Positions 1 through 4,902 of a stretch of DNA of 64,000 bases are shown here, one piece after another. The stretch lies in the NCBI GenBank assembly GCA_017302015.1, contig JAFLEE010000019.1, positions 2,551-66,550 on the forward strand, given 5' to 3'. Position 1 is the first letter of the stretch. Every line of letters begins with the position of its first letter. Under the pieces are notes generated by a model. It was given only the letters and a program-made list of their open reading frames with translations. It searched no databases and was not told where the DNA came from. Origin of the DNA: Spirochaetota bacterium (GTDB lineage Bacteria; Spirochaetota; UBA12135; COTS27; JAFLEE01). A program made the position numbers and the translations under genes.

Positions 1-346
1 GATTTTTGAAAATGCCCATAATTGATTTTTCTGGATTTCTTTCCAACCCTTTTGATTTCACGAAAATTGCCTTTGTATGGGAAAGTAATTTTGGTTTCAG
101 AAACTGCCGTTTTTGATTTTTCTGGATTTCTTCTCTTAACTCGTTGGGTCATTCGCTTTGGAGCACTACTTGATTATTTCCTTCTGATTTCAAAGAGGTT
201 ACTTTGGTTTGAAGATCAATTTCATTGCCCAGGTTCAGTTTTTGTTTCAGATTTCTTGATTTCTGATTCCTCATTTGATTCTGATCAAATTTCTACAATT
301 CCTATTCTCTTGATTCCTTTTCTGCATCTCTTTTGATTTCGCCTAA

Positions 347-464
347 CGTGGCGTTCAGCAGCGCCGATATTTAAATGGTCCTTTCGAATACGAAATACAT
401 TTCGAAAAACGGGTAAGTTCGAAGGCAAAGCCGGTGCGGCGTCTGCTGCAACGAATTGTTCGAG
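347..464 (-). other. attC of cassette 6 (about 118 bp). On the - strand: R'' CTCGAAC, then L'' aattcgttgcagcagacgccgc, then L' gcggcgctgctgaacgccac, then R' G|TTAGGC.
   Basis: L''/L' are inverse-complementary (cgttgcagcagacgccg versus cggcgctgctgaacg). R'' CTCGAAC is the exact reverse complement of G+TTCGAG, the cassette's own 5' end, as expected for a circularised cassette. The AACAATTCGTT...GACGCCGC start resembles class-1 59-be sites. Confidence 0.6.
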
Positions 465-599
465 TGCCTTTCTCATTCTGAGATTCCTGATCTCTTTTCT
501 TCATGTTTTCTCTATTTCTGAAATTCTTCAAATCTCTTCATCTGTCCTTACTTTTTGGATTTTGACCTAAGTTTTTTGTATTCCCCTGAGTCACTCGAA
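347..599 (-). repeat. Cassette 6, an ORF-less 253-bp gene cassette. It is copy 1 of duplicated element R1, near-identical to 3321..3574.
   Basis: Direct repeat of about 254 bp with only a few mismatches to 3321..3574. Bounded by G|TTCGAG (G 600 from the preceding attC) and ...ccacG|TTAGGC (G 347). No ORF of at least 60 aa that is confined to the element. Confidence 0.6.
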
Positions 600-650
600 C
601 GGTTAGGTTGAGCGGCGACCCTTGGGCGTCCGCTCGAACCTTTGTTAGGC
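600..650 (-). other. Short attC (about 51 bp) ending cassette 5. On the - strand: R'' GCCTAAC, L'' ggttcgagcggac, L' gtcgccgctcaacctaacc, R' G(600)|TTCGAG.
   Basis: Perfect RYYYAAC inverse core. Imperfect L''/L' inverted repeat (ggtt..gagcgg). Lies immediately 3' of cassette ORF 759..1403. The crossover G is followed by the start of the R1 cassette. Confidence 0.5.
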
Positions 651-1403: not shown

Positions 1404-1463
1404 ATGATATCCTCAGATACTGTTGCTATATAAAAAGGTTTTATTATTCGCGCATTCATATAA

Positions 1464-1674
1464 CGCCAGGCACTCAAGAAATGCACCGTAACAAGCCTAT
1501 CATGAGAAGACGAGGAAAGTTCACCGGTGCATTTGGTTCGGAAGGGCGCCCGAAAAGAGGGCGATAAATCCCAGAAAGCCCTCTTTTCGGGCGCTCTGGA
1601 GAACCTGACGAACCCCCCCCCCCGGAGGCCGAAGGCCGGAGCGGGGGTGAGGAACTTGAGTGGCCTCGTTAGGT
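1464..1674 (-). other. attC of cassette 4 (211 bp, 'giant' attC). On the - strand: R'' ACCTAAC, then L'' and two long internal hairpins, then L' cttgagtgcctggc, then R' G(1464)|TTATAT.
   Basis: Outer imperfect inverted repeat (aacgccaggcactcaag / cttgagtggcctcgtt). R'' ACCTAAC equals the reverse complement of G+TTAGGT, the 5' end of its own cassette at 2227. About 85% identical to 2228..2435 and 3050..3252. Confidence 0.6.
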
Positions 1675-1777
1675 GAAAAGACTGGGCGGCGCAGGATGCG
1701 CCTCTTCTCTTGTATTTTGCGTTGAACAACGCCAAGAAACGAAGGCGCGAATTCCAAGTCGAGTAAAGCGAAAAAAA

Positions 1778-2137
1778 TCATTTCGATGCGACCCATTTTT
1801 CATACTGCACATAGTCCCTCTGGATTACCTCTTTTTCAAACAACTTCGAAACTGCACCACCAAAAGAAATTTTATCAGTATATTCTGGATATTCGGCCTT
1901 AGAAATTACATCGCGATAATCAATAATTGCAATTTCGATTTGGTTTCGAAGTCTTTCAATATTTTTAGATGAATTTCTGATAGCGTCGATCCAAACCCTG
2001 TACCTACCGTTTTTGCTGCCCTCACCAGAATACTTCATCAGTATAGAGAATACCATGTCGAAAGATTCCCGCGGAAACTCACGAGTAATAATTCTATTGA
2101 CGTCTTCAATTGAAAAAACCGGTACTTTCTGATCCAA
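1778..2137 (-). CDS. Cassette-encoded hypothetical protein (119 aa). TTG start as listed. GGAGA Shine-Dalgarno 8 nt upstream.
   Basis: Only ORF inside cassette 4 (2227..1464). An in-frame upstream stop limits the N-terminus. No recognisable domain. The start codon is uncertain (TTG or ATT). Confidence 0.5.
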   Translation of the reverse strand: MDQKVPVFSIEDVNRIITREFPRESFDMVFSILMKYSGEGSKNGRYRVWIDAIRNSSKNIERLRNQIEIAIIDYRDVISKAEYPEYTDKISFGGAVSKLFEKEVIQRDYVQYEKWVASK

Positions 2138-2227
2138 GAGAATCTCTCCAATATGGATATTTCATGATTTCATTTTGAACATCTTAGGCCGCCAGGAAGG
2201 CGGCCTCTTGCCCAGGCTTTTTACCTA

Positions 2228-2435
2228 ACGCCAGACACTCAAGAAATGCACCGTAATAAGCCTACCATGAGAAGACGAGGAAAGTTCACCGGTGCATTTG
2301 GTTCGGAAGAGCGCCCAAAAAGAGGGCGATAAATCCCCGAAAGCACTCTTTTTGGGCGCTCTGGAGAACCTGACGAATCCCCCCGGAGGCCGCAGGCCGG
2401 AGCGGGGGTGAGGAACTTGAGTGGCCTCGTTATGC
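2228..2435 (-). other. attC of cassette 3 (208 bp, 'giant' attC). On the - strand: R'' GCATAAC ... R' G(2228)|TTAGGT.
   Basis: Same architecture as 1464..1674. R'' GCATAAC is the reverse complement of G+TTATGC, the cassette's own 5' end at 3049. R' GTTAGGT fits the GTTRRRY consensus. Confidence 0.6.
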
Positions 2436-2493
2436 GCAATGGTCGGGCGCCGCAGGATGCGGCTCTTATTCTTAAATCGATTTAGATCCATAT

Positions 2494-2994
2494 TCAACTT
2501 TCCATTTCGATTCCCATGATTTTTAAAGAATTTGAAATTATACATGACAATACGTACTGTGTTGCATTCCCAGGAAGGGAAAAATCGAAACGCGTGTGTT
2601 CATTTTCAATATTCAAATAAATGCCAATTCTTTTAAGTATCATGACATTTGAAAATTCTACTTCGGTTGGATTCTTTTTCTGAAACAGCGATATTTTAAC
2701 CGGATCAGCAAGTTCTTCGCGGTGATGGTCGAAATACAACCTTGGAGATCTACCCGAATCAGCTATTTTAAATTCACATAAAATATTTTCAATACAACGA
2801 GTTCTTATTTTTTCTGATTCTTTCAAAATCATTTTAACAAGATCTGATTTCAATGAAATATCGGCGCCTGGTTCAATATTCAGGTCGACCGCAACAGGAT
2901 ACCCATTTACGATCAACGTAGAATCATAATAGTCCATGTGACCTTTTTGAGGAATCATTCCGAATGGATTGAAATCAAAGGTCTTCATTGACAT
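2494..2994 (-). CDS. Cassette-encoded hypothetical protein (about 166 aa, MSMKTFDFNPF...).
   Basis: ORF inside cassette 3 (3049..2228). The listed ORF starts at TTG 3000. ATG at 2994, or ATG at 2988 with GGAG 7 nt upstream, is a more likely start. No recognisable domain. Confidence 0.55.
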   Translation of the reverse strand: MSMKTFDFNPFGMIPQKGHMDYYDSTLIVNGYPVAVDLNIEPGADISLKSDLVKMILKESEKIRTRCIENILCEFKIADSGRSPRLYFDHHREELADPVKISLFQKKNPTEVEFSNVMILKRIGIYLNIENEHTRFDFSLPGNATQYVLSCIISNSLKIMGIEMES

Positions 2995-3049
2995 CTCCAA
3001 AATCTTTGGCCGCCACGATGGCGGCCTCTTGCCCGACTATTGCGCATAA

Positions 3050-3252
3050 CGCCAGGCACTCAAGAAATGCACCGTCTAGAGCCTACCATGGAACCTTGTG
3101 GAAAGTTCACCGGTGCATTTGGTTCGGAAGAGCGCCCCAAAAGAGGGCGATAATTCCCAGAAAGCCCTCTTTTGGGGCGCTCTGGAGAACCTGACGAACC
3201 CCCGAGCCGACCTTGGCGAGCGGGGTGAGGAACTTGAGTGGCCCCGTTATAT
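3050..3252 (-). other. attC of cassette 2 (203 bp, 'giant' attC). Cassette 2 (3320..3050) contains only 68 bp plus this attC and has no ORF. On the - strand: R'' ATATAAC ... R' G(3050)|TTATGC.
   Basis: Same three-hairpin architecture as the other two long attC sites. ORF 3060..3281 lies entirely within the repeat and is judged non-coding. Confidence 0.55.
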
Positions 3253-3320
3253 GAATGCGCTCTAGTCAATTTCATCCCCATTTTCTTCTCTTTTCAATCA
3301 TTCCTCAGTTCTTCGCCTAA

Positions 3321-3574
3321 CGTGGCGTTCAGCAGCGCCGATATTTAAATGGTCCTTTCGAATACGAAATACATTTCGAAAAACGGGTAATTTCGAAGGC
3401 AAAGCCCGTGCGGCGTCTGCTGCAACGAATTGTTCGAGTGCCTTTCTCATTCTGAGATTCCTGATCTTTTTTCTTCATGTTTTCTCTGTCTCTGAAATTC
3501 TTCAAATCTCTTCATCTATCCTTACTTTTTTTGATTCTGACCTGAGTTTTTTGTATTCCCTTGATTCACTCGAA
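3321..3574 (-). repeat. Cassette 1, the attI-proximal cassette (254 bp). It is copy 2 of duplicated element R1. Its own attC lies at 3321..3438 (R'' CTCGAAC at 3432..3438 on the + strand as gttcgag; R' G(3321)|TTAGGC).
   Basis: Near-identical to 347..599. Bounded by G(3575)|TTCGAG and ccacG(3321)|TTAGGC. Confidence 0.6.
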
Positions 3575-3669
3575 CAAGAATTAGGCGATCGCCAGTAATC
3601 CCCCACCCACGCCCGTTTCACCCGAATTGTCCCGGTTCTGTTTTTTCACAAAAGAGCATAGCATGCCCT
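3575..3669 (-). other. Candidate attI and intI promoter region. The crossover is predicted at G3575|T3574.
   Basis: 95-bp region between the intI start codon and the first G|TT cassette boundary. Contains the palindrome ggcgatcgcc. The assignment rests on position only. If R1 copy 2 is not a cassette, attI would instead end at G3321. Confidence 0.35.
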
Positions 3670-4902
3670 ATGCAACTAAAACGCCCAAACCCCGATGAAA
3701 TCAAGGCTTTTAAAGCGCACTTACTCGATTCCGGCCATCCCGAAAACCGGGTGGCCTGGTCCATCAAATGGCTGGAACGCTTTTTGGTGGAATGTGCGGA
3801 TCCAATCTTGACGGACCAGACTGTCAACCAATATTTACATTCCCTGGAGGGGCGATTTTTAGACTGGCAGGTGAGGCAGGCGTCCGAGGTGATTTCCCGC
3901 TATGGGGCTTGGTCGGGTGGAGTGAGTTTGGATGGAGAGCCGAAGGATTCAGCGCTGATCGCCGAGGCGAAGGCGCAGATCCGCCTCCTCCACTATGCCT
4001 ATCGCACCGAGCAGAGTTACCTCGATTGGCATCGGCGGTTTCTCAGGTTTCGGCGGGAGGAGGGGCTCCCCCTTGAGGCGCGTGCACTATCCTCTTTTTT
4101 GAGGAAGTTAAATGAAGGCGATGGAGTAGCCGCCTCGACCCTCAATCAGGCGCATCACGCGGTGGCCTTTCTCTTTAAGCACGTCCTTCGGAAGGAGGTG
4201 GATGCCCTGGAAGAGGTGCCGCTGGCGAAGCGGCCGAAAAGACTCCCTCAGGTCATTTCGCGGGAGGAAGTTTCTCGCCTGCTTTCGCAGATGAATGGGA
4301 CCACGGGGATCATGGGTGCGCTCCTCTACGGTTGCGGATTACGACTGATGGAATGCTGCCGATTACGGATAAAAGATATCGATCTAACGGGGAAGGGGGT
4401 CATGGTTCGGGGTGGGAAGGGCGGGAAGGACCGCAGGGTGCCCTTACCGCGGCGGCTCGAAGAAATCCTCGCCCAACAGATGCGCGTGGTGAAGCTCCGG
4501 CATGAAAGCGATGCCGAGCAGGGCATCCCCGTGTCCCTTCCCGAGGGCCTTGAGCGGAAGTACCCCGGCGCGGGCCTCGAGTGGCCATGGTTCTACGTGT
4601 TCCCTTCGGGGTCGACGTGCCAGCATCCCCGCCTTGCCTTGGTGGTGCGCCACCATCTCTTCGAGGACACGCTTCAACGGGCGGTGAAGGTGGCGGGAAT
4701 CCGGGCGAACCTATCGGTGCCGGCCCATTGCCATCTATTACGCCATTCCTATGCCACCCATCTTTTGGAGGCCGGGACGGATATCCGCACCCTCCAGGAA
4801 CTCCTCGGGCACCGCGATGTGTCCACCACCATGATCTATACCCACGTGATCCAGAGGCCGGGCCAGATGGTATCAAGTCCGTTGGATCTTCTTGGGCCTT
4901 AA
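3670..4902 (+). CDS. intI: Integron integrase IntI (tyrosine recombinase, 410 aa as annotated). A GTG start at 3922 would give a typical 326-aa IntI.
   Basis: Motifs read from the translation: IRLLHYAYRTEQSY (IntI N-terminus), the IntI-specific additional-domain signature LERKYPGAGLEWPWFYVFPS, VVRHH, HLLRHSYATHLL (HxxR) and GHRDVSTTMIYTHV (catalytic Tyr). Confidence 0.92.
   Translation: MQLKRPNPDEIKAFKAHLLDSGHPENRVAWSIKWLERFLVECADPILTDQTVNQYLHSLEGRFLDWQVRQASEVISRYGAWSGGVSLDGEPKDSALIAEAKAQIRLLHYAYRTEQSYLDWHRRFLRFRREEGLPLEARALSSFLRKLNEGDGVAASTLNQAHHAVAFLFKHVLRKEVDALEEVPLAKRPKRLPQVISREEVSRLLSQMNGTTGIMGALLYGCGLRLMECCRLRIKDIDLTGKGVMVRGGKGGKDRRVPLPRRLEEILAQQMRVVKLRHESDAEQGIPVSLPEGLERKYPGAGLEWPWFYVFPSGSTCQHPRLALVVRHHLFEDTLQRAVKVAGIRANLSVPAHCHLLRHSYATHLLEAGTDIRTLQELLGHRDVSTTMIYTHVIQRPGQMVSSPLDLLGP

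Follow-up and report, generated by a model that had tools for sequence, protein, structure and literature searches.

Giant attC-like elements with a conserved branched fold in an integron cassette array of a Spirochaetota bacterium

Three long, highly structured repeats lie in the first 3.6 kb of a 64,000-nucleotide stretch of DNA from a Spirochaetota bacterium (assembly GCA_017302015.1, contig JAFLEE010000019.1, positions 2,551 to 66,550; hereafter the window), next to an integron integrase gene. An initial annotation, made from the sequence alone, took them for attC sites of giant size whose folded structure is under selection. Are these repeats recombination sites of the integron, or another folded, mobile or coding element that resides in a cassette array? 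Our analysis indicates that they are probably genuine integron attC recombination sites, which belong to an unusually large and conserved type.

With the element limits taken from TAAC to GTTA, and with the sequence written on the presumed folding (bottom) strand, the three elements are the following:

1461-1671, plus strand: putative giant attC copy 1, 211 nt
2226-2432, plus strand: putative giant attC copy 2, 207 nt, architecture as in copy 1
3047-3249, plus strand: putative giant attC copy 3, 203 nt, architecture as in copy 1 with a shorter hairpin P3

They are direct, co-oriented repeats placed after co-oriented minus-strand open reading frames (ORFs), with pairwise identities of 93.4, 82.9 and 84.5%. 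When an 18-mer of the element was searched with up to three mismatches through the whole window, it matched at the three copies alone, against a chance expectation of 0. Both the near-identical copies described initially in this region and their outer inverted repeat are confirmed.

The surroundings are those of a cassette array. The GC content is about 40% in the first 3.6 kb of the window, the AT-rich array, versus 66% in the abutting genome, and the array contains or adjoins these genes:

3670-4902, plus strand: integron integrase gene intI, encoding a 410-aa tyrosine recombinase that includes an N-terminal extension of ~95 aa
1778-2137, minus strand: cassette ORF of 119 aa without family match, after which copy 1 comes
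2494-3000, minus strand: cassette ORF of 168 aa without family match, after which copy 2 comes

The IntI protein passes TIGR02249, a model covering the IntI-specific additional domain, with 357.9 bits (cutoff 265) over model positions 2-314 of 315. A public protein with 100% identity to it is annotated 'integron integrase' in a metagenome-assembled genome (MAG) labelled Spirochaetes. The minus-strand ORFs left of intI run from 3000 to 2494, from 2137 to 1778 and from 1403 to 759, and intI is divergent from these cassettes, as in the classical layout. The top strand of the cassettes is the minus strand of the window, and their bottom strand is its plus strand. With an integrase gene adjoining, co-oriented ORFs preceding and an AAC...GTT, spacer and L-stem layout within the elements, the proposal that they end integron cassettes is well founded.

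As the initial annotation had anticipated, the elements fold strongly. Folded as single-stranded DNA, copy 1 reaches -60.4 kcal/mol (plus strand) and -58.8 kcal/mol (minus strand), compared to about -32 +/- 3.5 kcal/mol for shuffled controls, which corresponds to z-scores of -8.2 and -7.5, respectively. The parts of the fold are listed below for copy 1, together with the columns of a covariation alignment (A3) of 20 copies, 16 full and four partial, in which the columns are the positions of copy 1; three of these copies are from the window and 17 from other metagenomic cassette arrays.

1461-1465/1667-1671, plus strand: R stem, 5 bp, TAACG/CGTTA (columns 1-5/207-211)
1466-1470/1663-1666, plus strand: spacer, with G1663 as a predicted bulge
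Columns 9-10/204-205, plus strand: two invariant G-C pairs of the spacer, which may form
1471-1478/1655-1662, plus strand: L stem, 8 bp (columns 11-18/195-202)
1479-1534, plus strand: hairpin P1, with a 10-bp stem at 1479-1488/1525-1534 and a variable loop of 36 nt (columns 19-28/65-74)
1535-1605, plus strand: hairpin P2, with a base of 5 bp, an internal loop, a 20-bp stem and a 15-nt loop
1535-1539/1601-1605, plus strand: P2 base (columns 75-79/141-145)
1543-1562/1578-1597, plus strand: P2 main stem, 20 bp (columns 83-102/118-137)
1606-1612, plus strand: linker TGACGAA between P2 and P3 (columns 146-152)
1613-1647, plus strand: hairpin P3, with a C-run/G-run base, a small GC tip and a GAA loop
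Columns 160-164/182-187, plus strand: P3 base, whose pairs never vary
1648-1654, plus strand: linker TGAGGAA between P3 and the 3' arm of the L stem (columns 188-194)

The terminal structure, that is, everything enclosed by the L stem (columns 19-194), measures 176 nt and consists of the three hairpins P1, P2 and P3 extending from a four-way junction. The TAACG...CGTTA boxes, which contain the AAC...GTT triplets, do not vary and are paired in each of the 16 full copies. Between triplet and L stem lie 6 nt in the 5' arm and 5 nt in the 3' arm, with C6, C7 and A8 predicted to be unpaired. The two linkers are purine-rich, single-stranded and invariant in 20/20 copies, and P2 hardly varies. Two subfamilies of the element differ in the tip of P3, for which separate folds give a short GC hairpin in every variant. 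The two internal hairpins reported initially are both found, with corrections. The 10-bp stem of the first, AAATGCACCG/CGGTGCATTT, is as described, but its loop has 36 nt and not 35; the second does contain a long stem, which is not a near-perfect helix of 25-28 bp but 5 bp and 20 bp separated by a GGA/GGA 3x3 internal loop. The third hairpin with its C-run and G-run, the two invariant linkers and the complementarity of the flanks (see below) had been overlooked. One alternative pairing was also noted: the invariant linker segment TGACG (columns 146-150; window 1606-1610) can take the place of TAACG as the partner of the R-box arm CGTTA (columns 207-211; window 1667-1671). This pairing was chosen by RNAalifold over the R stem, a preference that we treat as an artefact of the 5'-truncated rows of the alignment; the pairing could also represent an alternative, non-recombinogenic conformer.

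The additional copies came from metagenomic arrays. When 185,579 species genomes (one per species) were scanned for an exact 18-mer, 10 matches came up; blastn showed similarity over no more than the word of 18-23 nt in each, and they are attributed to chance. No match to the element was found in plasmids (blastn) or viral contigs (two scans). In JGI metagenomes, scanning with a 20-mer gave one true copy (locus L011) and one chance match (L012). An indirect route was more productive, in which an alignment of the translated element was searched against a protein database so as to catch spurious ORFs. It gave 13 'hypothetical proteins' that are gene-caller artefacts across homologous elements, and scanning eight contigs of these artefact ORFs with nhmmer led to loci L014-L020, with two to five co-oriented giant copies per contig. 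In these loci the copies are spaced by 433-1171 nt of cassette content, and the ORFs between them, all in the same orientation, include the toxin-antitoxin genes BrnT, HicB and PhdYeFM/YoeB, which is typical content of cassette arrays. The giant elements form two subfamilies that are 72-79% identical to one another.

Across the 20 copies, standard base pairs occupy 99.3% of 975 cells. Double, compensatory changes affect 12 pairs in 56 cells, a level that was reached by 0 of 500 shuffles, and sliding the pairing partners by 1-3 columns as a control left only 0-2 covarying pairs and 32-52% pairing. The L stem is 100% paired and has three covarying pairs, as seen in CACTCAAG/CTTGAGTG versus CACACCTG/CAGGTGTG between the subfamilies. 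P1 contributes two covarying pairs, one of them with three pair types (columns 27/66), the P2 base three and the P2 stem four; RNAalifold independently recovered P1 and P2. The R stem and the P3 base are invariant and hence uninformative on covariation, and the P3 tip was left out of the scoring because the subfamilies align with indels there. The compensatory change pointed out initially among the three window copies is real and corresponds to a single pair, columns 92/128, which is G-C, A-T or C-G. The wider claim that the fold is under selection is borne out by the 12 covarying pairs of the L stem, P1 and P2, the 99.3% pairing and the shuffles. Copies from other arrays covary as well, and among the copies found, none lies outside a cassette array.

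The 13 annotated ORFs raise the question of whether the minus-strand frames through the element encode a small conserved protein, the more so as two such frames are open across the window copies. The lengths of the elements (203, 206, 207 and 211 nt) nevertheless differ by non-multiples of three, and differences of 1, 3 and 4 nt inside P3 shift the frame upstream of a shared 'SSGSPERPKRG'. Moreover, the substitutions are paired across stems and not concentrated at third codon positions, and no Pfam domains are recorded for the 13 ORFs. We give a coding function almost no credence, and it was rejected on account of the frame shifts between copies.

The sequences outside the elements carry a second kind of complementarity. 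On the plus strand, the stretch of 11-16 nt behind the CGTTA of an element is reverse-complementary to the 11-16 nt ahead of TAACG in the next one. In the window, the flanks and their partners are:

1672-1687, plus strand: right flank of copy 1, GGTGAAAAGACTGGGC; partner is the left flank of copy 2, with 14 of the first 16 positions paired
2210-2225, plus strand: left flank of copy 2, GCCCAGGCTTTTTACC; partner is 1672-1687
2433-2448, plus strand: right flank of copy 2, TGCGCAATGGTCGGGC; partner is the left flank of copy 3, with 15/16 positions paired
3031-3046, plus strand: left flank of copy 3, GCCCGACTATTGCGCA; partner is 2433-2448
3250-3260, plus strand: right flank of copy 3, TATGAATGCGC; partner is the left flank of copy 1; read directly
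1450-1460, plus strand: left flank of copy 1, GCGCATTCATA; partner is 3250-3260

Such complementarity, starting at the triplet, is present in 14/14 adjacent element pairs of the window and six other loci, with a mean of 14.9 matched positions out of 20 for adjacent pairs versus 8.1 out of 20 for 346 non-adjacent combinations. Loci L015, L016 and L021 contain the right flank of copy 3 as well. The two flanks of one and the same element in an array are mostly unpaired (5-10 of 20 positions), with the exceptions of L019 and L020. In L019 (reverse-complement coordinates 745-951) and L020 (426-632), the element's own flanks are complementary at 15/20 positions, so that these elements resemble un-split, circle-form sites in linear DNA.

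It is therefore the two ends of a cassette that pair with each other, which places the crossover between TAA and C on one strand and between G and TTA on the other. Variable sequence that begins exactly at the AAC/GTT triplets, with ends that belong together, is what an attC crossover between G and TT predicts. The flanks are specific to each cassette and yet complementary, and this is a further layer of covariation, one that is able to matter only in the circular cassette. Joining the cassette ends gives an outer stem of 21 bp in the circular form, for which the predicted fold is more stable than for the array form: -76.4 versus -56.6 kcal/mol for copy 2, and -78.3 versus -67.4 kcal/mol for copy 1.

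The distribution and flanks of the copies also bear on a different origin, in which they would be palindromic repeats akin to repetitive extragenic palindromes (REP) or miniature inverted-repeat transposable elements (MITE) that spread on their own and came to lie in the array by chance, with cassettes being exchanged by homologous recombination and not by IntI. Long direct repeats of 83-93% identity could indeed recombine in this way, and homologous recombination would likewise keep the cassette flanks together; the L011 copy, furthermore, abuts an IS256-like transposase gene. Against this, the three copies in the window are confined to its 3.6-kb array and absent from the remaining 60 kb, all recovered copies are co-oriented, follow ORFs and are spaced as cassettes are, and no target-site duplications were seen. 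The variable flanks, moreover, start exactly at the AAC/GTT triplets, and the elements have the R-spacer-L layout of attC. We consider such an origin very improbable, and it was rejected since the copies are confined to arrays, three copies in 64 kb not being the pattern of a dispersed repeat. As for the gene near the L011 copy, it is a 396-aa ORF at 359-1549 on the minus strand of that locus, about 50 nt from the left end of the giant element and interrupting that cassette; by eye, its product resembles an IS256/mutator-type transposase.

Which strand of an attC site of this kind would fold? In the core of the elements, six cells are G·T on the plus strand versus one A·C, and of the six mismatches that interrupt the paired stretches of the flank stems, four are G·T on the same strand. 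Purines make up 60% of the unpaired positions on the plus strand, which is the more stable of the two in 11/16 copies, by a mean of -1.0 kcal/mol, and whose P3 loop in copy 1 is GAA. For comparison, the bottom strands of known attC sites are on average 2.12 kcal/mol more stable and are purine-rich, with a GAA loop in mobile-integron sites (PMC5027507). The wobble pairs and the purine skew point to the plus strand, which is the bottom strand of the cassettes, as the folded one, with evidence that is consistent but modest, and this agrees with the orientation of the genes.

These features can be assembled into a tentative mechanism. With the plus strand folded, IntI would bind its R and L stems and cut in the AAC triplet, so that cassettes would be exchanged between TAA and C on the plus strand, and between G and TTA on the cassette strand. 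The 176-nt terminal structure would replace the short terminal loop of an ordinary attC. Since recombination from double-stranded DNA falls with the length of the terminal structure (PMC5027507), the giant sites should depend on single-stranded DNA (ssDNA). Most likely, P1-P3 would serve to collapse the long terminal region into a compact, self-nucleating fold, shortening the effective loop and bringing the R and L arms together. The outer stem, present only in the excised circle, would strongly stabilize the recombinogenic fold; it may thereby help the single-stranded circle, once excised, to fold and re-insert, and at the same time keep excision events in the array rare.

Several observations weigh against the identification as attC sites or limit what it explains. 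Recombination of the giant elements by IntI is predicted from sequence, and the link to intI rests on the window and on L021, which holds a 10-nt remnant of a giant-element flank, as the other contigs are short array fragments. Since copies of one array are paralogues, the covarying changes cannot be counted as independent events. The six core G·T cells represent only four distinct pairs, which leaves about eight independent G·T positions, core and flanks combined, versus one or two A·C. The canonical extrahelical bases of attC, T12'' and G20'' (PMC2727003), are not clearly present in the giant elements, which in this would differ from VCR-type sites (see below). One bulged G is predicted on the 3' arm of the plus strand, 5 nt from GTT, and none inside the L stem; this G adjoins the two invariant G-C pairs of the spacer, which offer no covariation signal. 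On the same arm, a 7-nt linker comes after the L stem. Finally, P2, the linkers and parts of the loops are conserved beyond the needs of hairpin stability, which hints at an extra constraint. Neither an aid to folding nor the circle-only stem explains the conservation of the linker and P2 sequences, which is why a separate function of the core has to be considered.

Part of the evidence on such a function comes from small GC hairpins outside the flanks:

1688-1702, plus strand: small GC hairpin, terminator-like, then TCTTCTCTTG, just beyond the right flank of copy 1
2449-2463, plus strand: small GC hairpin, then TCTTATTCTT, after copy 2
2187-2205, plus strand: related hairpin GGCCGCCAGGAAGGCGGCC, then TCTTG, just beyond the left flank of copy 2
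3008-3026, plus strand: related hairpin GGCCGCCACGATGGCGGCC, then TCTT, just beyond the left flank of copy 3

Their consensus is GGCCGCA-NGAT-GCGGCC followed by TCTT(A/G)TCTT. It occurs on both sides of many elements, including flanks in L011 and L015-L019, and L019 has a compensatory variant, GCCACAGGATGTGGC. The small hairpin is always terminator-like on the plus strand, antisense to the cassette genes.

The inner core, P1-P3 and the linkers, could accordingly be a functional module of its own within the attC frame, either a plus-strand non-coding RNA that runs antisense to the cassettes and stops at the small hairpin and T-rich tail just downstream, or an ssDNA signal on the excised circle, such as a binding site for an accessory protein or a priming site. 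The linkers are invariant and P2 nearly so across copies that are 72-79% identical overall, the wobble pairs favor the plus strand, which would be the sense of the RNA, and terminator-like hairpins stand on that strand 16 nt past copies 1 and 2, recurring elsewhere with a compensatory variant. The conserved N-terminal extension of ~95 aa in this IntI clade could be the partner of such a module. A conserved promoter was nevertheless not found upstream, where the left flanks are cassette-specific, and the downstream hairpin is absent from several copies. Rfam gave no family match, with 0 matches at the gathering score in the window and sub-threshold microRNA-hairpin noise in a permissive scan. 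The covariation of the flanks makes sense for circular DNA and not for a transcript of the array, and the core was never found without its R and L frame. Overall, an independent module of this type seems unlikely to us. A bolder version would make the core a dedicated ssDNA (or RNA) module whose linkers and P2 are recognised by a partner, either the N-terminal extension of IntI or a host factor, and which together with the circle-only stem distinguishes excised from integrated cassettes, biasing capture over loss. This version is doubtful; if true, a partner-recognised core combined with a circle-only stem would constitute a regulatory layer that has not been described for integrons.

Taken as attC sites, the elements are indeed far longer than typical ones, as first reported. 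Their 203-211 nt exceed the published attC length range of 57-141 bp (PMC5027507), and their terminal structure of 176 nt exceeds the 20-100 nt given in the IntegronFinder paper (PMC4889954), these usual ranges being descriptive and not defining. In the literature searched for attC size and structure, the coverage of which was incomplete, no description of attC sites longer than 200 nt was found. The Vibrio cholerae repeats (VCRs) and other attC sites of sedentary chromosomal integrons resemble the giant family in that similar sites recur array-wide, each after a cassette ORF, with R and L stems and AAC/GTT triplets. VCRs measure roughly 120-130 nt. Compared to them, the giant family is longer and its terminal structure has the form of a conserved four-way junction whose linkers are invariant; the complementarity of the cassette ends beyond TAAC extends over 11-16 nt, versus about 4 nt in the 7-nt core consensus. 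VCR-type sites likewise have long terminal structures that can be branched, and their folded bottom strand, more stable and purine-rich, is the substrate (PMC5027507). The attC sites of mobile integrons (attCaadA7, ~60 nt) share the R-spacer-L logic and the position of the crossover, and the GAA terminal loop of their bottom strand is also found at the P3 tip of the subfamily present in the window, but their terminal structure is a 3-nt loop, versus three hairpins totalling 176 nt here. Going by the published relation between terminal-structure length and recombination from double-stranded DNA (PMC5027507), the giant site should rely on ssDNA much more than these short sites.

Among spirochaetes, the attC sites of Treponema succinifaciens and T. 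brennaborense, of 132 and 115 bp, are 92-96% identical within an array (PMC3607928), and the former length is the longest that we found described for a spirochaete (PMC3607928). Like the giant family, these sites are long and near-identical within an array, and the host MAG of the elements described here is labelled Spirochaetes; however, their length is ~70-90 nt less and they have been depicted as plain stem-loops. The divergent orientation of intI relative to the array is a further point in which the window differs from them. What is new here, within a known kind of attC, is the conserved four-way core with its invariant unpaired linkers and the outer stem formed only in the circle. As attC sites are the only means of delimiting cassettes, a family that measures ~235-240 nt with its flank stems, above the cited range, may lead surveys of environmental integrons to overlook arrays or to split them wrongly. 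IntegronFinder caps the attC size at 200 nt by default, which is below the length of the giant elements. In one study the option --max-attc-size had to be set to 300 (PMC13616975). A circle-only outer stem would also be a simple way for a site to excise poorly yet insert well, and sites of this sort bear on how large chromosomal arrays combine stability with continued capture.

The remainder of the array includes ordinary integron features:

3571-3586, plus strand: probable attI crossover region, with cgAAC and AAGAATTAGGC on the two sides of the crossover
3315-3438, plus strand: ordinary-sized attC, 124 nt, GCCTAAC...GTTCGAG, belonging to the ORF-less first cassette
594-650, plus strand: ordinary short attC of the same array, 57 nt, CTCGAAC...GTTAGGC, read directly

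The attI assignment follows from conservation of the motif, which three related intI loci also carry. Presumably, the same integrase handles both the ordinary-sized and the giant attC sites. The 124-nt attC has a 97% identical duplicate at 341-464, as part of a ~260-bp ORF-less cassette that occurs twice in the window (338-600 and 3312-3575, 97% identity), once as the first cassette beside attI and again five cassettes off. Locus L021, whose IntI is 62% identical, repeats the layout proximal to intI, with an ORF-less stretch, an attC starting with GCCTAAC and then the giant-element flank. Two cassettes of the window (3250-3314 and 651-1460) break the end-matching rule reciprocally: the unit with copy 3 starts with TTAGGC, matching the short attC at 594-650, and the unit with that attC starts with TTATATGAATGCGC, matching copy 3. 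One history that would fit is a single ancestral cassette with an intact giant site inside it, into which the copy 1 and copy 2 cassettes were inserted later.

The N-terminal extension of IntI (residues 1-96, window 3670-3960) lies outside the Pfam and NCBIfam models and is conserved in homologues at 46-62% identity, with F14, L18, G22, R37, L56, W66, Q67, Q70 and A71 invariant. A public 315-aa annotation of intI, which starts after the extension, is probably too short. Just upstream of intI, a motif CGTTTCACCCGAAT-N6-7-CGGT(G)TTC is found in all four related loci (window 3615-3650, L013 88-120, L021 430-465 and L022 140-180), and this conserved motif may serve to regulate the expression of the integrase.

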